From contig LFCR01000002.1 of assembly GCA_001189215.1 (NCBI GenBank), forward strand, positions 140,677-173,687: a DNA stretch of 33,011 nt. Direction: 5' to 3'. A program made the translations under genes and the position numbers. The notes under the pieces are model-generated. The model saw only the letters and a list, made by a program, of their open reading frames with translations. It was not told the DNA's origin and ran no database searches. Of this stretch, positions 7,828 through 30,348 are shown one piece after another. Numbering within the stretch: the stretch's first letter is position 1; every line of letters begins with the position of its first letter. This stretch comes from Parcubacteria bacterium C7867-008 (GTDB lineage Bacteria; Patescibacteriota; Minisyncoccia; Phycocordibacterales; Phycocordibacteraceae).

Positions 7828-7904
7828 GTTGCGAAAGAGTACTAAAAGCGATAGGGTAGGCAACAGACTGTTCATCCAGGGCAGTTTAATAGGGAGGCGA
7901 AACG

Positions 7905-8195
7905 TTGTCGGATTTGGCGCAAGACGACTCGGATATCAACGCGAACCACGGCATCTATCGGCGGTTTCGGAAAGGGATCATGCGTGATCACTCCGACATC
8001 CTGATCGATGCTGGCGCGCAGGCCACGCCGCCGGTTTCAAGGGACCAGGCGGTCCTGGACAGTATCGACTTCGAAGACGGTCTGAAGACGCAGCGCGTCT
8101 TCAGACCACCGCACTACGTGATGCCCTATGTCTTGGCGGAGATCGCCAGGCTGAAGGGCGCCGGTGCGGGCACCCGTGAACTGCAGGCGGCCTAA
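7905..8195 (+). CDS. Hypothetical 96-aa protein in a high-GC islet (TTG start)
   Basis: GGGAGG (7892-7897) lies 7 nt upstream of the TTG. No family recognised. The C-terminal ...VLAEIARLKGAGAGTRELQAA* resembles the first helix of an HTH that stops abruptly. It contains a perfect 13-bp inverted repeat. Confidence 0.4.
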   Translation: MSDLAQDDSDINANHGIYRRFRKGIMRDHSDILIDAGAQATPPVSRDQAVLDSIDFEDGLKTQRVFRPPHYVMPYVLAEIARLKGAGAGTRELQAA

Positions 8196-8222
8196 CGAGG
8201 TTCGCCAACAACTGAAACAGAA

Positions 8223-8259
8223 GGCCCGGTCGCGCAAGCGTCCGGGCTGTTTCCTTTTT
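8223..8259 (+). terminator. Intrinsic terminator after the 7905 ORF
   Basis: GCCCGG (8224-8229) / CCGGGC (8242-8247) enclose CGC-GCAA-GCG, followed by TGTTTCCTTTTTA. Confidence 0.6.
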
Positions 8260-8287
8260 ATGGTACGAACGATAGGATAAGTAAATC

Positions 8288-11200
8288 ATGGCTGAAATGG
8301 AGAACGATGATAATCAGGTATCTGAAGTAGCAAAACGTGAGGAGGAAATCCTTGCGTATTGGAACGAACAGCAGACCTTCAAAGCTTCTCTTGAGAAACC
8401 ATCTCCTAATGGTGAGTACGTTTTCTACGATGGTCCTCCATTTGCAACTGGGCTCCCACATCACGGGCATATTCTTGCCGGCACTATAAAAGATGCGATA
8501 CCACGTTATAAGACGATGCGTGGTTTCCACGTGCGCCGCCGTTGGGGCTGGGACTCACACGGTTTGCCACTCGAGAACATCATCGAGAAAGAACTTGGCA
8601 TAAAGACGAAGCGAGATATCGAAGAGATGGGAGTTTCCGTATTTAACGAAGCAGCTCGTAACGCGGTACTTCGGTATGCAAATGAGTGGAAGCGCATCGT
8701 ACCTCGTATTGGTCGGTGGGTGGACATGGAGGATGACTATAAGACCATGGACACCACATACACAGAATCTGTGTGGTGGGCATTCAAGAGACTCTTTGAT
8801 AAGGATCTTATCGAAGAAGGGTTTAAAGTAATGCAACTATGTCCCCGTTGTGGAACAACACTCTCTAACTTTGAGGTCAGTCAGGGATACAAAGATATAA
8901 AAGATATAACTGCGTACGCAAAGTTTGAATTAGAAGATGAGCTCGGTACGTATCTTCTCGCATGGACCACCACGCCATGGACGCTTCCTGGAAATATCGC
9001 ACTCGCGCTTGGTACAGATATTGAATACGTAAAGGTAGAAAAGCAGGGAGGCCACTACATTCTTGCAGGAGCGCTTGTTGAAAAAGTATTTGGTGAGGAT
9101 CACGGCGATGTCACTCCAGTACATAAGTCCGAACTTCTTGGACGAGTATACAAGCCAGTGTTCCCAGGGGTAATCGATACACTTGCTGAAGGAAAGGAGC
9201 GAGACAAACTCGGTGCTGCATTCCATGTATACGAAGCAGACTTTGTTACCGCTGAAGATGGAACCGGTATCGTACACATTGCACCGGCATTCGGTGAAGA
9301 TGATCTCAGTCTCGCGCGAGTGCACGGACTACCGATAGTGCACCACGTAGATCGCGATGGCCGCATGATGAGTGCCGTACCTGCAGTTGCCGGAAAGCTC
9401 GCAAAGCCGAAAGGGCAGTGGTGGGAGACCGATGCACTTATTGTTGAATATCTCGGAGATAAACTTTTTAAAACAGAAGAAAAGGTACACAGCTATCCGC
9501 ATTGCTGGCGCTGCGATACACCGCTCCTCAACTATGCTTCTGGTTCATGGTTTGTTCGCGTGCCAACATTTAAAGACAAACTTGTTGCTGAGAATGAGAA
9601 GGTTGGATGGGTACCTGAAGCTATTGGAAAGAATCGTTTCGGTGATTGGCTTAACAATGCACGAGACTGGGCAATCTCACGTAGTCGCTATTGGGGTGCA
9701 CCTATTCCCGTATGGAAGAACGAGAAGACGGGGGCGCTTCAAGTATTTGGTTCCGTAGAAGATCTCAAGAAGCATGCAAAGAAGAGTGGCAACCGATACT
9801 TCGTCATGCGCCATGGTGAAGGTGAGCACAATATAAAGGGAGTTGCTGCTAAGGGAGACGAAACATTCCGTGCCGTATTAACGGAAACTGGTCGTGCTCA
9901 AGCTAAGAAGAATGCAGCAGCACTTGCACATGCAAATGTAACGCGCATTATTGCGTCACCACTTGCGCGTGGATGTGAGACCGCAGCAATTGTAAAAGAA
10001 ACACTCGGACTAACTAACGTAGAGATTGTCCAGGATGAGCGTCTCCGTGAATTCAACTTTGGTGAGCTAGATGGAAAACCGATAGGGGAATTTGTCCGGT
10101 GGCGTGAAGAAACTACATACGCAGATCGTATCCCAGGAGGGGAGAGCTACCAGGATGTTAAGAATCGTATTGGAGAAGTTCTCTACGAACTTGAACGTAC
10201 CTATCAAAACGAAACAATCCTTATCGTTACACATGGCGTAGGTATTGAGACAATCAATGCGGTTGCACAGGGAATAGATAAGGACGCTTCAAAGAAACTC
10301 TCTGCAGACATGGTACCTCTGTATGCAACACCACTTGAACTAGATTTCACGCCACTTCCACATAACACGGAATACGAACTTGATCTCCATCGTCCGTATA
10401 TCGATGAGTACGCATTGGTAGACACTGACGGATCTCTACTTCATCGTGTTGCTGATGTCTTTGATTGTTGGTTTGAATCTGGCTCAATGTCCTACGCGCA
10501 GGATCATTATCCGTTTGAGAAAGACAACTTTGATCCTGAAACCGGACTCTTCAAGAAATCCAAAGGATACCCAGCAGACTTCATTGCAGAAGGATTAGAC
10601 CAGACACGTGGCTGGTTCTATTCGATGATCGTCCTTGGTACGGCATTGTTTGGACATTCTCCGTATAAGCACGTGATCGTGAACGGTCTTATTCTCGCTG
10701 AAGACGGCAGGAAGATGTCTAAGAGTTTGAAGAACTATCCAGAACCTATGGATGTGGTGGCTAAGTACGGTGCAGACGCTCTTCGTCTCTATCTACTTTC
10801 TTCACCGCTCATGCGTTCTGAAGATCTCAGGTTCTCAGAGAAGGGGGTAGCGGAGGTAGGGAACAAGGTAATTGGTCGCTTGCACAACACACTCGTTTTC
10901 TACGAGACGTATGCGATGAATGATGTACCAGAAACAGTCTCAAGTACCCACGTACTTGATCGTTGGATCATGGCGCGCCTTAAGGAAGTGCGTGATGAAG
11001 TTACTGAGGGACTTGAGTCGTATGAACTCGATCGTGCAGCACGTCCTCTCGCACAACTGGTTGATGACCTTTCAACCTGGTATCTTAGACGATCACGTGA
11101 CCGTGTAAAAGATTCGGTCGATGCTGCAGCAACTATGCGCTGTGTACTTCGAACAACTGCATTGCTGTTCGCCCCATTCACACCTTTCTATGCTGAATAC

Positions 11201-11749
11201 CTGTGGCGCAACGTTAAATTCATTTCAGATCCTGAAAGTGTTCACCTTGCTGATTGGCCAGAACTCAAGGGTGCAGATCAGAAAACTCTGCTAGAAGATA
11301 TGGCACTTGTTCGTACACTTGCATCAGAAGCGCTTAAGCTGCGCCAGCAGGCAGGTATCGTAGTGCGTCAGCCACTCGCTTCACTTAGTGCACCCACTAT
11401 TCCAAGCACACCAGAACTCATAGAGATTCTCAAGGAAGAGGTCAATGTTAAGGATGTATTGAAGCACGAAGGTGACATGACACTCGATACAGAACTAACT
11501 GAGGAATTAAAGCGTGAGGGTGATGTACGTGCATTCATGCGTGCACTTGCAGATGCTCGTAAAGATATGAATCTTTCTCCAAAGGATAGTGTGATGGTTG
11601 TTGCCCACAGCGCGGCAAAAGAAATACTTGCGAACCTTACGCTGCCAGGACTTGCAGAACTCTCATTCGAAGATTCAGTTGATGGTCCGTATACTGCAGA
11701 ATTCTCTGCTATGAAGATTGGTTTTACCGTTACTCGCAATGCGGCATAA
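8288..11749 (+). CDS. ileS: Isoleucyl-tRNA synthetase (type 2-like) carrying an internal histidine-phosphatase domain
   Basis: 1153 aa. Motifs: PPFATGLPHHGHILAG (HIGH), WGWDSHGLP, WTTTPWTLPGN (editing CP1), WAISRSRYWGAPIPVW, GRKMSKSLKNYPEP (KMSKS). The extra ~200 aa are described in the next feature. Confidence 0.95.
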   Translation: MAEMENDDNQVSEVAKREEEILAYWNEQQTFKASLEKPSPNGEYVFYDGPPFATGLPHHGHILAGTIKDAIPRYKTMRGFHVRRRWGWDSHGLPLENIIEKELGIKTKRDIEEMGVSVFNEAARNAVLRYANEWKRIVPRIGRWVDMEDDYKTMDTTYTESVWWAFKRLFDKDLIEEGFKVMQLCPRCGTTLSNFEVSQGYKDIKDITAYAKFELEDELGTYLLAWTTTPWTLPGNIALALGTDIEYVKVEKQGGHYILAGALVEKVFGEDHGDVTPVHKSELLGRVYKPVFPGVIDTLAEGKERDKLGAAFHVYEADFVTAEDGTGIVHIAPAFGEDDLSLARVHGLPIVHHVDRDGRMMSAVPAVAGKLAKPKGQWWETDALIVEYLGDKLFKTEEKVHSYPHCWRCDTPLLNYASGSWFVRVPTFKDKLVAENEKVGWVPEAIGKNRFGDWLNNARDWAISRSRYWGAPIPVWKNEKTGALQVFGSVEDLKKHAKKSGNRYFVMRHGEGEHNIKGVAAKGDETFRAVLTETGRAQAKKNAAALAHANVTRIIASPLARGCETAAIVKETLGLTNVEIVQDERLREFNFGELDGKPIGEFVRWREETTYADRIPGGESYQDVKNRIGEVLYELERTYQNETILIVTHGVGIETINAVAQGIDKDASKKLSADMVPLYATPLELDFTPLPHNTEYELDLHRPYIDEYALVDTDGSLLHRVADVFDCWFESGSMSYAQDHYPFEKDNFDPETGLFKKSKGYPADFIAEGLDQTRGWFYSMIVLGTALFGHSPYKHVIVNGLILAEDGRKMSKSLKNYPEPMDVVAKYGADALRLYLLSSPLMRSEDLRFSEKGVAEVGNKVIGRLHNTLVFYETYAMNDVPETVSSTHVLDRWIMARLKEVRDEVTEGLESYELDRAARPLAQLVDDLSTWYLRRSRDRVKDSVDAAATMRCVLRTTALLFAPFTPFYAEYLWRNVKFISDPESVHLADWPELKGADQKTLLEDMALVRTLASEALKLRQQAGIVVRQPLASLSAPTIPSTPELIEILKEEVNVKDVLKHEGDMTLDTELTEELKREGDVRAFMRALADARKDMNLSPKDSVMVVAHSAAKEILANLTLPGLAELSFEDSVDGPYTAEFSAMKIGFTVTRNAA
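9770..10378 (+). other. In-frame histidine-phosphatase (phosphoglycerate-mutase-like) domain inserted in IleRS (aa ~495-697)
   Basis: NRYFVMRHGEGEHN (R508 H509 G510 at 9809-9817), LTETGRAQA, IIASPLARGCETA, ERLREFNFGELDG, IPGGESYQDV, ILIVTHGVGIE. This is the ordered motif set of the His_Phos_1 superfamily. Confidence 0.75.
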
Positions 11750-26382: not shown

Positions 26383-26522
26383 GTATCAGTATTTTACCAC
26401 CTTGCGTCTAAGTGTGATCACTAAAACTTCAGAGAATCAAAGACACTCAGGTAAAAGCTTTTCAAAGAGGAGCAGAGGGGTATACTTGTCCTTGAAGACC
26501 GATAAATTCATATAAGACATAC

Positions 26523-27344
26523 ATGGGTGATAAGGGACAAATAAAAGACACACAGATATCTAAGACGCATGAGAATAAGGCGTCTAGTACTGATTTCGTC
26601 CTAGAAAAAAGCATATTCTCAAACATTTTTGAAAAGGACATACGTAGAGTTTACATCTATAAAAAGGTAGAACGTCTCGCCAAAGCCATTCATCTTGTTG
26701 GTCCAGCATTTAGAAATTCACCTGCACTGCGCGATCGTATGGACCATGTCGCCGTGGGTCTGGTGGACGCAGCTATACTTCCTCCTAGTTCAGCACGAGA
26801 CGCTCTGTCACGTGAACTATTGGCACTCTCAAGCGTGCTCTCAATTGGACGCACCGGAGGTCTTCTTTCGAGCATGAACGCCGAACTCATTGCTAGAGAA
26901 GCACACACTCTTCTTCAAGAAATTGCTGCATACGAAGAACCACGACTCTTCCTAGATGACGCGCCGTCACTAGCAGAGTTAGCCAAGGAGCTTGCCTCGG
27001 AGCGACACACTACCTCATCTAGTCATCCAGCTCATGTTCAACAGGCCCTTCGTGTCCCGAGCGAACACCAGAGCAAAATGCAGGGGCCTCATTCAAGAAC
27101 CATGGCAACTTCTGATAAAGGACACATAAAGGACAAATTGAAACTATCGGACAAAAATAGCGACCGACAAGAAGCAATCATTTCAGTACTTCGTTCCAAA
27201 GGCCCTTCTTATATAAAGGATGTTTCAACCGTAATTCGTGATGTTAGCGAAAAGACCATTCAGCGTGAGCTACAAACTCTCGTAGAGCAGGGAACAGTGG
27301 TCCGTAACGGAGAGCGTCGTTGGACTACCTACGCCCTTTCTTAA
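26523..27344 (+). CDS. Putative DNA-binding protein: helical N-terminal domain plus C-terminal winged-helix (DeoR/HTH_11-like)
   Basis: 273 aa. The C-terminus RQEAIISVLRSKGPSYIKDVSTVIRDVSEKTIQRELQTLVEQGTVVRNGERRWTTYAL is wHTH-like. TATAAG (26511-26516) lies 6 nt upstream of the ATG. Confidence 0.6.
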   Translation: MGDKGQIKDTQISKTHENKASSTDFVLEKSIFSNIFEKDIRRVYIYKKVERLAKAIHLVGPAFRNSPALRDRMDHVAVGLVDAAILPPSSARDALSRELLALSSVLSIGRTGGLLSSMNAELIAREAHTLLQEIAAYEEPRLFLDDAPSLAELAKELASERHTTSSSHPAHVQQALRVPSEHQSKMQGPHSRTMATSDKGHIKDKLKLSDKNSDRQEAIISVLRSKGPSYIKDVSTVIRDVSEKTIQRELQTLVEQGTVVRNGERRWTTYALS

Positions 27345-27379
27345 GGAGAAAACCTGATCTAAATAGAAGCCGGTCTTCG

Positions 27380-27408
27380 TTGACTTTCTTCATGAAAACA
27401 CCTATGCT
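27380..27408 (+). promoter_or_regulatory. Sigma70-like promoter inside the long spacer
   Basis: TTGACT (27380-27385), 17-nt spacer, TATGCT (27403-27408). Confidence 0.35.
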
Positions 27409-27857
27409 TCGGGCTTGGGATAGCAGGAGAAATCTACCCAGATTTCCGGTTATCCACATTCGCGTATAGCTGTTTAGCACCTGCAGCTCTGTATACTTAC
27501 ACGGTACACAGAACGCATGGGGCGTAACGCTGAAACGGTTGAACGTTGACATTAACCAGGGCTTCACTTTGGTTCTGCTAAAGAGAACCCCGGACATAGT
27601 GCTCAGCAAAAGCATAGTGCTCGTCACGTAAGAAGTGGCGAGCCGGCCCGTCTCCTTTATCGGAGTGCGGGCATTCAGCACGGAAGCACTATACCGATAC
27701 GGATGGATACGGAATGCTACTGAATTTTGCCAACTAGCCGATGGGGCGCGGGTCGATACTGCGTCTTGTCGGGTAGTAAAGGAATGTTCGAAAACGGTGA
27801 GTCTCTTCGGAGTTTCATTGATTACAAAAATGCAAGCGGGTGTGTGCGATGCACTTT
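27409..27857 (+). ncRNA. Candidate structured RNA or long 5' leader, family unknown
   Basis: Hairpins at 27429-27446, 27571-27589, 27619-27643, 27646-27672 and 27799-27816 (UUCG loop). Alternative pairings around 27671-27725 and short direct repeats. No credible ORF on the + strand. Confidence 0.3.
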
Positions 27858-27914
27858 TAGTATTTATCGCACCGCACACGCTTCGTTCAAAAACTAATTA
27901 CAAAAGCAATTGTT

Positions 27915-29912
27915 ATGACAACTGCAACAACAAACGTAGTTGCAAAGATCGCAGCAGTCGTCGCAGGCCTCGGCCTCGTCGCTATGTCCTTTGCACCTGC
28001 AGTAAAGGCTGATACGACTTCTGACCTTCAGGCTCAGATCGCATCACTTCTCGCACAGATTTCATCACTTCAGTCTCAAATGGCTGGTGGTTCAACAAGT
28101 GCAAGCGTTATGTTCTCTAAGGACCTTACTATGGGTTCTCAGGGTTCTGACGTAACAGCTCTTCAGAACTGGCTTATCAGCAAGGGCTTTGCAATCACAG
28201 CTGGCGCTACCGGATACTTCGGTGCACAGACTAAGGCTGCTCTCGCTGCATACCAGGCTTCTGTAGGCATCTCTCCAGCAGCTGGATACTTTGGCCCGGT
28301 AACACGCGCTAAGGTAAACGCTTCTGCAGGTGGTACTACAGGCGGAACTACTGGAGGTACTACTGGTGGCAACACTGGTGGACTCAAGGGTGGTGAAGCT
28401 GATCTTCGTGATTTCAACCTCCGCTCTGAGGAATCAGACGGTAACGAGGGTGAGACCGACGTAGAAGTAGCTACTGCTGAGTTCGATGTAGACAGTGGCG
28501 ATGTAAAGGTTGAGCGTGCTGAGCTCACCATTCACGCAACAAACTCATCTCTCGAAGACAAGCCTTGGGACTTCATCGACAGCGTGTCGGTATGGTCTGA
28601 TGGCAAGAAGGTCGCTGAGATGAACGCAGACAGCCGTGAGGATTGGGACGAGGAGAACGTAGAGGCTTCTATCTTCGGTGGTTCAAACACTGACGATCAG
28701 TACACTATGTCTCTCGCAGGTCTCAACCACATCGTTCGTGAGGACGACATGGCAGAGCTCACATTCTCATTCGACATCAGCGATGATATCGATGATGCTG
28801 ATCTCGATCAGGAGTTCGAAGTAGCGGTTCTCGATGACGGTATCCGTGCTGTTGACTCCGAAGGAGTTGATCAGTACACAGGTAGCGACAGCGAGCTCGT
28901 AACCTTCGGTTTCGGATCTCAGGAGAACGGTAATCTCTCAATCCGCGAGGGTGATGAGAACCCTGATTCCGCTACTCTCAAGGTAGAGGATGATGAGACT
29001 TCTAACGAATACACAGTATTCGCATTCGAAATCCGTAACTCTGATGATTCAGACACACTCATCACTGATCTTACAATCCAGGCCACAACTTCTGACACTG
29101 GCAGCTTCTCTGACGTTGTACGAAATGCAACTCTCGTAGCTGACGGCGAGGAATTCGATGGTGATATCAACAACGTCGGTTCAAACGGCGATGGAAATAT
29201 CAGCTTCGATGACATGGATCTTCAGATCGATGGTGACAGCACAACAGCTTTCGAGCTTCGTGTTGAATTCGCATCACAGTCTGGTCACTACTCTGACGGC
29301 ACGACTGTCCTCTTCGGTCTTACCGCACAGGATGTTGAGGCTGAAGGTGTAGAGAGCGGTGACGATGTAGAACTTGCAGACATTGGTGGATCAGCAGCGT
29401 CTGAGACCCACACTGTTGCCCTCACCGGCTTCGATGTTGCTCCAGTATCTACATCTGAATCAGTTCAGACAACTGATACGATTGGTAACTCTTACGGAAC
29501 CTTCGTAATCAAGTTCGATGTTACTGCTGACGAGGACGATCCAACCTTCATTGACAACACCGCAGCAAGCAGCTCGGCTTCAGCTTCAACAACCGTTGGT
29601 GCTGTATACCGTGTCCTTCGTGACGGTGCAGTCTTCGCAGGTGTGTTCGATTCTTCGAACTCAGTTCTTACATCTACTGCAGATATGGAGAGCGGTGCGT
29701 ACCGTGTTGATGCAGGTGACACTGAGACATTCACTCTCACTGTTACTATCAACCCGGCTACAGCTGGTCTCTACGCAGTTGAGCTCTACGGTGTTAACTA
29801 CGCATCAACAGCTGCGCTAGCAACATCTGGTAGCGCATCTGACAACAGCACGTTCGCTGTCGACACAGATAACTCTGAGTTCGAGACCGATCCTGCTAAC
29901 ATCCCTGTCTAA
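27915..29912 (+). CDS. Secreted peptidoglycan-binding protein with a large acidic beta-rich C-terminal region
   Basis: 665 aa. Signal peptide (..VAMSFAPAVKA/DT), coiled segment LQAQIASLLAQISSLQSQ, PG_binding_1-like GSQGSDVTALQNWLISKGF...GYFGAQTKAALAAYQ...GYFGPVTRAKV, a (GGTT)n linker, then ~480 Asp/Glu/Ser/Thr-rich residues. Confidence 0.75.
   Translation: MTTATTNVVAKIAAVVAGLGLVAMSFAPAVKADTTSDLQAQIASLLAQISSLQSQMAGGSTSASVMFSKDLTMGSQGSDVTALQNWLISKGFAITAGATGYFGAQTKAALAAYQASVGISPAAGYFGPVTRAKVNASAGGTTGGTTGGTTGGNTGGLKGGEADLRDFNLRSEESDGNEGETDVEVATAEFDVDSGDVKVERAELTIHATNSSLEDKPWDFIDSVSVWSDGKKVAEMNADSREDWDEENVEASIFGGSNTDDQYTMSLAGLNHIVREDDMAELTFSFDISDDIDDADLDQEFEVAVLDDGIRAVDSEGVDQYTGSDSELVTFGFGSQENGNLSIREGDENPDSATLKVEDDETSNEYTVFAFEIRNSDDSDTLITDLTIQATTSDTGSFSDVVRNATLVADGEEFDGDINNVGSNGDGNISFDDMDLQIDGDSTTAFELRVEFASQSGHYSDGTTVLFGLTAQDVEAEGVESGDDVELADIGGSAASETHTVALTGFDVAPVSTSESVQTTDTIGNSYGTFVIKFDVTADEDDPTFIDNTAASSSASASTTVGAVYRVLRDGAVFAGVFDSSNSVLTSTADMESGAYRVDAGDTETFTLTVTINPATAGLYAVELYGVNYASTAALATSGSASDNSTFAVDTDNSEFETDPANIPV
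28329..28382 (+). repeat. Tandem 12-nt coding repeat (GGN GGN ACN ACN) x4.5 encoding GGTTGGTTGGTTGGNTGG
   Basis: ggtggtactaca / ggcggaactact / ggaggtactact / ggtggcaacact / ggtgga. Confidence 0.8.
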
Positions 29913-29952
29913 TAGCGACGAGAGCAATCTCGCTTAGCTACTAGCTAGAGAA

Positions 29953-29984
29953 AGCAAAAGCCCCGCGAAAGCGGGGCTTTTGCT
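29953..29984 (+). terminator. Intrinsic terminator after the PG-binding protein gene
   Basis: Perfect 14-bp stem AGCAAAAGCCCCGC / GCGGGGCTTTTGCT with GAAA loop. Confidence 0.8.
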
Positions 29985-30010
29985 ATATGTATATGGTATT
30001 CTCACAATAT

Positions 30011-30145
30011 ATGGCAGATGACCCACGCGACCAGAAGGAAATGCGCTCATCCGTACTCCACTTCATGACCTTTACCGGTGGATTTCTGATTATCCTCACC
30101 GTAGCTTTGTCGCTTTTCAGCTACACCTCAGCTTCAGGAGTATAA
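30011..30145 (+). CDS. Possible 44-aa single-TM protein
   Basis: Not in the track (under 60 aa). MADDPRDQKEMRSSVLHFMTFTGGFLIILTVALSLFSYTSASGV. TGgTATTCT (29994-30002) lies 8 nt upstream of the ATG, matching the local leaderless pattern. No SecE-like motif seen. Confidence 0.4.
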   Translation: MADDPRDQKEMRSSVLHFMTFTGGFLIILTVALSLFSYTSASGV

Positions 30146-30147
30146 GT

Positions 30148-30176
30148 TTGCGCATTGGGAGTCTTCATCGTATAGT
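30148..30176 (+). promoter_or_regulatory. Sigma70-like promoter for rplJ-rplL
   Basis: TTGCGC (30148-30153), 17-nt spacer, TATAGT (30171-30176). Confidence 0.45.
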
Positions 30177-30287
30177 CTCAGGGTACGGACCGAAGACAGC
30201 GAGCATCTTTGCTTTAGAGCAGGGAAGAAGACTCGCCGAGGGAAGGACAGGAAATGTATACGCATTTTCTTTCCGACTTGTCTCCAC

Positions 30288-30321
30288 GAACGGTCCACGC
30301 AGCATGCTGCGCGGACCGTTC
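30288..30321 (+). promoter_or_regulatory. Long near-perfect hairpin in the rplJ 5' leader (possible L10 autoregulatory or attenuator element)
   Basis: GAACGGTCCACGCAGC / GCTGCGCGGACCGTTC gives 16 positions with one A-C mismatch. It lies 28 nt upstream of the rplJ ATG. Confidence 0.4.
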
Positions 30322-30348
30322 ACGTTTCGTACATAACAAACCCAGCAC

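Follow-up and report, generated by a model that had tools for sequence, protein, structure and literature searches.

A candidate family of very large cis-acting leader RNA upstream of a peptidoglycan-binding surface protein gene in Paceibacteria

The locus and its conservation

Paceibacteria, which belong to the candidate phyla radiation (CPR), are ultra-small, mostly uncultured episymbionts. The stretch of DNA analysed here, called the window throughout, comprises 33,011 nucleotides (nt) of Parcubacteria bacterium C7867-008 (GCA_001189215.1, contig LFCR01000002.1, positions 140,677 to 173,687 of the forward strand). Coordinates are window positions counted from its first letter unless a related locus is named. 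A spacer of 570 nt (27345-27914) separates the stop codon, at 27344, of a gene for a helix-turn-helix (HTH) protein from the ATG, at 27915, of a gene for a secreted protein with a peptidoglycan-binding domain (PGBD). An earlier examination of the letters of the window, referred to below as the sequence-only reading, had taken the spacer to be an unclassified structured RNA that was either independent or a switchable leader of the downstream gene. The spacer is real, and the evidence presented here makes it very probable that it is a transcribed, structured cis-leader (∼27416-27914, ∼500 nt) of the PGBD mRNA.

The PGBD gene (27915-29912, + strand) encodes 665 amino acids, which include a hydrophobic, signal-like segment at the N-terminus, a PG_binding_1 domain (PF01471, E = 5e-10) and a long acidic region rich in Thr and Ser. 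In a metatranscriptomic study, genes for PGBD proteins ranked within the top five signal-peptide genes by expression in three Paceibacteria, and a part in host attachment is suspected for the secreted PGBD proteins of these bacteria (PMC10936435).

The + strand of the spacer folds with a minimum free energy (MFE) of −197.7 kcal/mol compared with −164 ± 6.6 kcal/mol for dinucleotide shuffles (z = −5.08), none of the 100 shuffles equalling it. The − strand gives z = −3.42, and the GC content of the region is 0.48-0.51. The hairpins proposed by the sequence-only reading at 27429-27446, 27571-27589, 27619-27643 and 27646-27672 are all present in the MFE fold or in a constrained fold, as are the proposed UUCG-capped stem (around 27803-27812) and the hairpin at 27844-27872, and the direct repeats can be seen in the spacer sequence. 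The statement that all other spacers in the window are at most ∼200 nt does not agree with our map of open reading frames, on which gaps of 460 nt (7828-8287) and 436 nt (29913-30348) are devoid of any frame (ORF) of at least 100 amino acids.

For comparison, 80 loci (L001-L080) were fetched from species-representative genomes via alignment of the upstream HTH protein, 584 relatives being found altogether. BLASTN and three rounds of nhmmer showed the spacer to be homologous in essentially all 80. The conserved blocks correspond to ∼27445-27560 and ∼27725-27910 of the window. The part between them (∼27560-27725) is missing from a class of leaders that we call the short form. Measured from the predicted transcription start to the ATG, short-form leaders are 315-400 nt long and long-form leaders 450-575 nt, with ∼685 nt found in two loci. 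The window leader, at ∼500 nt, is of the long form.

The order HTH gene, element, PGBD gene on one strand was found in 75 of the 80 loci, the other five being incomplete when examined with tblastn, and the downstream PGBD homologues come in versions of either 620-690 or ∼1150 amino acids. Thus the element always lies between the same two genes and ends at the PGBD start codon. The covariance model of the core domain described below gives a single hit in each locus and none elsewhere in the window. An impression that the downstream gene varied, or lay on the minus strand, in some loci was traced to spurious antisense ORFs, tblastn placing the PGBD gene on the + strand everywhere. A candidate 3′ anchor for the element, ACTACAAAAGC, was dropped when it proved to be coding sequence in short-form relatives, and a phage or mobile origin was rejected since no similarity was found in a phage collection. 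The leader appears from these alignments to be common to the whole class of ultra-small CPR/Paceibacteria bacteria.

Promoter and transcription of the leader

A consensus scan recovered the sigma-70-type promoter that had been proposed on the + strand at 27380-27408, with a −35 hexamer TTGACT (27380-27385), a 17-nt spacer and a −10 hexamer TATGCT (27403-27408). Of 78 loci, 68 carry the motif TTGAC(N)-N17-TAnnnT at a fixed place that directly follows the upstream gene's stop codon, often with TGn just 5′ of the −10. Hexamers 17 ± 1 bp apart at a maintained position are therefore a feature both of the window and of these 68 loci. Counting from the −10, nucleotide seven in the relatives is the G of a conserved GUGGUAGCGAC, and the transcription start of the window leader is predicted at ∼27415-27417. 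The first helix of the leader, P1, starts 0-2 nt past the predicted start in the relatives (GUGGUAGC..) and at 27417-27418 in the window. RNA contigs from relatives start just 3′ of the equivalent point and none of them spans the promoter. A second −10-like sequence noted by the sequence-only reading, TAGTAT at 27858-27863, sits in a hairpin loop and has no support as a promoter.

Transcription was examined using assembled contigs from public metatranscriptomes, which come from relatives of the window organism. Four RNA contigs align to the window (27679-27991, 27825-28034, 27881-28051 and 27834-28010) and each of them crosses from the leader into the coding sequence (CDS). For a second locus, L014, contigs of 554-573 nt from three rhizosphere runs cover the middle domain, the core domain and ∼190 nt of the CDS. 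For the short-form locus L027, one contig (4895-5194 of that locus) begins within P1 and continues unbroken past TTATCCACA and UAUACU as far as the ATG, a second starts ∼12 nt past the predicted start, and a third of 1913 nt covers leader and CDS at a depth of 172, depth being a poor measure of expression in such data. None of the RNA contigs on L027 crosses the promoter. Sequence words of the short-form leader were found in 24 metatranscriptomes from freshwater, ice, sediment, soil, peat, groundwater and sludge. The RNA contigs agree with a transcript that comprises leader and CDS and begins at the conserved promoter.

The other half of the choice offered by the sequence-only reading was an independent, trans-acting noncoding RNA (ncRNA) gene of ∼400-450 nt that merely happens to lie upstream of the surface protein gene. 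Such a gene would have its own strong predicted promoter, and the size of the element, its multi-domain fold and its invariant loops resemble those of large ncRNAs; processing could also release the leader from the mRNA. However, an independent RNA should end, or be terminated, ahead of the next gene, and 66 of 69 loci have no terminator-like site within ∼150 nt of the ATG. Moreover, no conserved block resembling a separate promoter belongs to the PGBD gene, the RNA contigs pass from leader to CDS without a break, and neither Rfam nor ARAGORN gives a match to RNase P, tmRNA, SRP or 6S RNA. An independent RNA gene is thus very unlikely, and it is the leader of the peptidoglycan-binding gene, indicated by synteny, promoter, lack of a terminator before the ATG in most loci and RNA contigs, that survives from the pair of proposals.

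Helix P1, its enclosed hairpin and the invariant 9-mer

Helices were evaluated as the fraction of alignment cells that can pair, compared with the same helix after sliding its 3′ partner by 1-3 columns, and by a covariation score compared with 500 shuffles. RNAalifold returned no structure for the gappy whole-domain alignments (A3, A5 and A6), so pairs were counted on named structures.

The 5′-terminal helix P1 (5′ strand 27417-27427, 3′ strand 27446-27457, + strand), seen both in the MFE fold and by covariation, forms between the 5′ end of the predicted transcript and the invariant TTATCCAC (..YGUUAUCCAC). In 69 sequences 82% of the cells are paired, compared with 36-51% after sliding, and 0/500 shuffles reach the covariation score. 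G·U pairs are abundant, alignment pair 12-147 for instance being GC in 21 sequences, CG in 15, GU in 14 and UG in 4.

The 3′ strand of P1 contains the 9-mer TTATCCACA (27450-27458, + strand), the first 8 nt of which are paired. It is exact in 78 of 78 loci, and the invariant block of the alignment consists of just these nine columns. The 9-mer is identical to the 9-nt consensus of the DnaA box and is the sole perfect copy in the 33-kb window. It is conserved more strongly than its partner strand in P1, where changes are absorbed via G·U and A-U switches, and this suggests a further constraint that is specific to the sequence, perhaps the binding of DnaA or of another protein to the DNA or to the RNA. 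An origin of replication was considered and rejected. There is one perfect box, with no pair or cluster of boxes (three one-mismatch sites elsewhere in the window are below chance expectation). The window lacks dnaA and dnaN, and an AT-rich region for unwinding is missing from sequence of GC content 0.48-0.51.

P1 encloses a hairpin, GAAAUCU/AGAUUUC at 27429-27446 of the window (+ strand, MFE and constrained folds). In most relatives its counterpart is a conserved GGCCGGAAACGGyC followed by a U run and is terminator-like. A GC hairpin and U run between the P1 strands were found in 43 of 69 leaders by strict criteria and in more by eye. In the window and its closest relatives the U run is missing; termination at this position is therefore not universal. 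The enclosed hairpin may be the terminator of the upstream HTH gene, which has no other terminator, or it may be an attenuator of the leader. A further 18 terminator-like hits lie 3′ of the 9-mer, and 13 of these are a second hairpin of the short forms, AGUCCuuGCGGGGACUuuUGUUCC. This second terminator-like hairpin, AGUCCuuGCGGGGACU followed by UUUUGUUCC, is conserved in short-form leaders only, ∼45-60 nt past the 9-mer (about 4987-5011 in L027).

These hairpins raise the question of whether the leader is an attenuator or riboswitch-like element, on which a ligand or protein decides between termination at the hairpins and continuation, or decides access to the start codon. The frequency of the P1-enclosed hairpin and the addition of a second one in the short forms are in keeping with this, as are the conservation of the GGCCGGAAACGGyC sequence itself, the many invariant unpaired nucleotides, which are aptamer-like, and the constant presence of a regulator-like gene next door. 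However, the first hairpin lies 5′ of nearly all of the conserved structure and therefore the fold could sense nothing before the polymerase arrives there. The U run is lacking in the window and its closest relatives, an RNA contig reads through the hairpin, and conserved alternative helices were not found. The sequence-only reading had proposed two mutually exclusive pairings, 27671-27676 with 27712-27717 and 27673-27678 with 27720-27725, but in 30 relatives only 46% and 36% of the cells, respectively, are paired, which is no more than in the shuffled or slid controls, and they lend no support to the description of the leader as switchable. A further candidate, the alternative pairing of GAUAAC with GUUAUC, was abandoned as GAUAAC is not conserved in the long forms. 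On balance we regard attenuation as distinctly unlikely.

The UAUACU hairpin and the conserved junction

Downstream of P1, alignments and local folding identify a hairpin (27489-27511, + strand) that carries an invariant UAUACU at 27492-27497. Local folding gives it a mean z of −1.16 over 69 sequences. Of 69 loci, 64 place TATACT 38-43 nt from the start of the 9-mer, and four of the five outliers have it at 50-52 nt, longer by about one turn of the DNA helix. The spacer between these two elements has neither conserved sequence nor conserved fold (mean z +0.24, RNAalifold empty). A hairpin seen there by eye in several sequences, and labelled H3, was rejected on the same grounds. The HTH gene's own promoter likewise has TATACT as its −10 hexamer. 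An internal, activator-dependent promoter is conceivable given the fixed distance, the foldless spacer and this identity, although no −35 is suitably spaced from TATACT and consistent RNA 5′ ends were not found there.

These observations, with those on the 9-mer, bear on the idea that part of the conserved sequence acts at the level of the DNA, TTATCCACA being a site for DnaA or for the HTH protein which serves as a roadblock or operator or which, with TATACT, forms the internal promoter. The exact match of the 9-mer to the DnaA consensus in every locus, the excess of its conservation over that of its pairing partner and the helical-turn spacing all favour this, and 8 loci also carry DnaA-box-like words ∼95 nt before the start codon of the HTH gene. 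DnaA is known to regulate transcription (PMC11317965). E. coli DnaA prefers closely spaced paired sites (PMC11317965), whereas the box here is single and outside any cluster. In addition, P1 shows that the box is transcribed and paired, and RNA contigs show no consistent start 3′ of TATACT. A role at the DNA level is rather unlikely in our estimation and, if present, can coexist with an RNA leader without replacing it.

The conserved junction that follows, GGGGCG..CUGAAACG..UUGACAUUAACCAGGGC (27519-27560, + strand), was recognised as a block of the nhmmer profile and in alignments, and its short-form equivalent is GGGCGUACUUUGAUAACUGAAUAG. RNAalifold of the short forms gives a possible long-range pairing of GGGCGUAC with GUGCUCC just 5′ of the start codon, this pairing showing one-sided changes only. 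The short-form consensus contains 12 pairs with compensatory changes and a variable hairpin that covaries strongly.

The middle domain, the core domain and the 3′ region

The middle domain (27561-27726, + strand) is lineage-specific, being absent from the short form. It contains a hairpin with a conserved GUAAGAA loop (27619-27643), a second hairpin CCCGUCUCC/GGAG.CGGG (27646-27672) and ACGGA(A/U)G repeats (27680-27716). In 30 long-form sequences 71.6% of the cells of the middle hairpins are paired, compared with 34-48% after sliding, and 0/500 shuffles reach the score. The GUAAGAA hairpin has two-sided changes at all nine of its pairs.

The core domain (27727-27781, + strand) consists of UUGCCAACUA, a long covarying hairpin and then GUAGU, with a conserved apical loop GGGUCGAUACU at 27750-27760. 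The loop motif GGUCGAUAC of the hairpin is conserved and T-loop-like, the stem is of 8-14 bp, and 130 more conserved nucleotides follow. In this hairpin 94.7% of the cells are paired in 68 sequences against 31-54% after sliding, and double-change cells number 132 compared with 47 ± 5 in shuffles, none of 500 being as high. Several pairs flip from CG to GC or from GC to AU in 24-35 sequences. Compensatory changes thus exceed the controls, with a paired fraction about twice that of the slid helices, and the spacer can be described as a structured RNA.

A covariance model of the core scores 65.7 bits on the + strand of the window and 15.7 bits on the − strand, and across the loci it scores 44-92 bits on the + strand and at most 32 bits on the − strand. 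These scores, and the frequent G·U pairs, which would be A·C mismatches on the other strand, place the element on the + strand. The sequence-only reading had pointed to a stop-free frame on the − strand as a sign of constraint. The frame exists, with 184 codons (27325-27879), but only 2 of 69 leaders are comparably open (at least 90% stop-free). That this frame is a real protein gene is extremely improbable: beyond its existence in the window nothing speaks for it, Pfam gives no match, and substitutions track RNA pairing, G·U pairs of the + strand included, instead of codon periodicity. It is a chance feature of this genome.

The 3′ region (27795-27887, + strand) is predicted to fold into a variable UUCG hairpin (∼27799-27816), GAUUAC (27820-27825) and a long hairpin (∼27834-27883); GATTA(C) and the long hairpin are conserved among the long forms. 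Finally, an A/U-rich initiation region without a Shine-Dalgarno sequence (27888-27917, + strand) leads to the ATG at 27915, the equivalent in the relatives being ..UUAACAAUUGUUAUG. Among 21 genes of the window, almost none shows a recognisable Shine-Dalgarno sequence at up to 25 nt from its start codon. Many short forms have a perfect 12-nt palindrome, TAACAATTGTTA, directly 5′ of the ATG (5172-5187 in L027), of which the window (27904-27914) keeps only CAATTG. The palindrome could be a protein-binding site or a feature of translation initiation.

The upstream gene and other features of the window

The HTH gene (26523-27344, + strand) encodes 273 amino acids. Its only Pfam match is a C-terminal HTH_DeoR, and some sources label the protein an ‘ArsR family regulator’. 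It has 1645 homologues and is 83% identical to a protein of “Parcubacteria bacterium C7867-007”. AlphaFold2 predicts a four-helix bundle (residues 29-136), a disordered linker of ∼65 residues and a winged helix (207-272), with pLDDT above 85 for the helices and the winged helix. Matches to structures in the PDB are weak (E at least 7e-3), the winged helix bearing some likeness to Zalpha/MarR/ArsR-type domains and the bundle to four-helix bundles of the “S23 ribosomal protein family”. Sequence searches of the PDB and NCBIfam added nothing for this protein, its N-terminal domain included. As the HTH gene is strictly linked to the leader, its product is the obvious candidate for a regulator.

The HTH gene's own promoter (26440-26522 in the window, and the 170 nt upstream of the HTH gene in L001-L080) has a conserved TTGCnn-N17-TATACT, which is followed and flanked by repeated GGACA/TGTCC words, e.g. 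GGACATATACTTGTCC, with an operator-like look. An inverted DnaA-box-like TGTGGA(T/C)AA lies ∼91-97 nt upstream of the HTH start codon in L005, L007, L009, L013, L019 and L025, and in a similar place L077 has the variant TGTGGAGAA and L071 a forward one-mismatch box TAATCCACA, making 8 loci altogether. A DnaA-box-like word may therefore mark both transcription units, as judged from these motifs.

Elsewhere in the window, the gap 7828-8287 lies upstream of a tRNA synthetase gene, and the gap 29913-30348 lies upstream of rplJ and holds a one-mismatch DnaA-box-like site, TTATCCTCA, at 30090. Rfam detected neither an L10 leader nor a T-box in either gap. The ORF at 8288-11749 encodes a class I tRNA synthetase of the isoleucyl/valyl type (1153 amino acids) with a His_Phos_1 domain inserted in the middle of the synthetase (residues 505-673, E = 8e-35). 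A histidine-phosphatase domain within a tRNA synthetase is an unusual fusion.

Discussion

The explanation that we prefer overall is that a strong, conserved promoter drives a structured leader which stabilises the PGBD mRNA and boosts its expression. We assign to it a probability of about 0.6, a compromise between the identity of the spacer as a leader, which is held with high confidence, and stabilisation with expression boosting as the main job of that leader, which is a tentative assignment, put at somewhat below even odds. In this explanation P1 would sequester the start of the transcript, and the compact fold that follows would shield the message from decay that depends on the 5′ end, as in the ompA, aprE and slpA leaders. 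The open A/U-rich stretch before the AUG would let ribosomes load. Together these features could give a long-lived, heavily translated mRNA for a very abundant secreted protein. Since many unpaired nucleotides are invariant, a protein or other factor might also dock on the leader, either the neighbouring HTH/four-helix-bundle protein or DnaA at TTATCCACA, and there is possibly added control beyond stabilising.

Several points weigh against this explanation. The RNA contigs are assemblies from relatives and not reads of this organism, DNA carry-over being possible, and the transcription start is placed at its predicted position from the promoter motif. A simple stabiliser would need neither 300-600 nt nor invariant single-stranded blocks of 9-10 nt. 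The fixed length between the 9-mer and UAUACU, in the face of no conserved structure, hints at a constraint on the DNA. The terminator-like hairpin and U run inside P1 of most relatives, and the second such hairpin of the short forms, would fit attenuation better. It is because the invariant box, the fixed distance to TATACT and the terminator-like hairpins go beyond what stabilising requires that this function is given no more weight than stated above.

The leader could also represent a new class of large structured RNA that does biochemical work itself and is more than a passive stabiliser, e.g. a platform that senses a protein or ligand and ties synthesis of the main surface protein for host attachment to the state of the cell. 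Sensing would then operate via DnaA at the transcribed TTATCCACA, via the HTH protein, or via both, and the promoter-proximal terminator-like hairpin would be the point of control. We consider such a platform to be rather improbable.

The leader provides a handle on how reduced genomes control a key surface protein. It is also a marker RNA that has already been met in the metatranscriptomes of many biomes and is a candidate for structural study. The presence of an exact, invariant DnaA-box sequence in the 5′ helix raises a testable link between the control of replication and the synthesis of the envelope.

Comparison with known RNAs and systems

Searching Rfam 15 (4227 models, among them RNase P, tmRNA, SRP, 6S, T-box, ydaO, glmS, OLE, GOLLD, ROOL, HEARO, raiA and the lysM motifs) with the whole window and 17 related loci gave no match at the gathering thresholds. 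At E ≤ 10 the window region and one short-form locus gave only chance hits of the miRNA and snoRNA type with 13-20 bits. The element is thus unclassified, as the sequence-only reading had supposed, and its helices covary. By-eye likenesses to RNase P, tmRNA, SRP and 6S RNA (the GUAAGAA loop, the T-loop-like GGUCGAUAC and ACAGAA) were rejected, as Rfam and ARAGORN are empty and the element is fused to a CDS. In the case of tmRNA, ARAGORN found no tRNA or tmRNA in the window, the stem of the GGUCGAUAC hairpin is of 8-14 bp, and conserved nucleotides continue 3′ of it. Literature searches gave no earlier description of this leader RNA.

The putative box in P1 shares with DnaA-box control sites the perfect 9-mer consensus, which TTATCCACA retains in all loci. 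However, it is single, transcribed, paired in P1 and away from dnaA or any origin-like region.

Like the riboswitches and protein-dependent attenuators of cell-wall genes (ydaO/c-di-AMP, glmS and lysM-type motifs), the leader lies in the 5′ untranslated region (UTR) of a peptidoglycan-related gene, has conserved unpaired nucleotides and, in many relatives, has terminator-like hairpins. It differs from them in matching none of their models, in having no conserved alternative pairing and in placing the terminator-like hairpin before the conserved fold. The OLE, GOLLD, ROOL, HEARO and raiA RNAs, large bacterial RNAs whose functions are obscure or only lately found, are similarly larger than 300 nt, multi-domain and strongly covarying, and they too are finds of comparative genomics in uncultured or poorly studied lineages. 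However, the leader matches none of their models even at E ≤ 10 and, unlike them, is a cis-leader tied to one gene.

A close parallel is with 5′-terminal stem-loops, which stabilise the mRNAs of E. coli ompA, B. subtilis aprE and Lactobacillus slpA. Here also a long UTR precedes a very highly expressed surface protein, a stem is found at or near the predicted 5′ end, and the leader is co-transcribed with the CDS. The present leader is 3-5 times longer (315-685 nt) and multi-domain, its loops and junctions are invariant class-wide, and it has no sequence or Rfam relationship to these three. By these comparisons it appears to be a new family of very large cis-acting leader RNA, and such a multi-domain leader, class-wide and outside Rfam, would be among the largest cis-acting RNA structures of bacteria.

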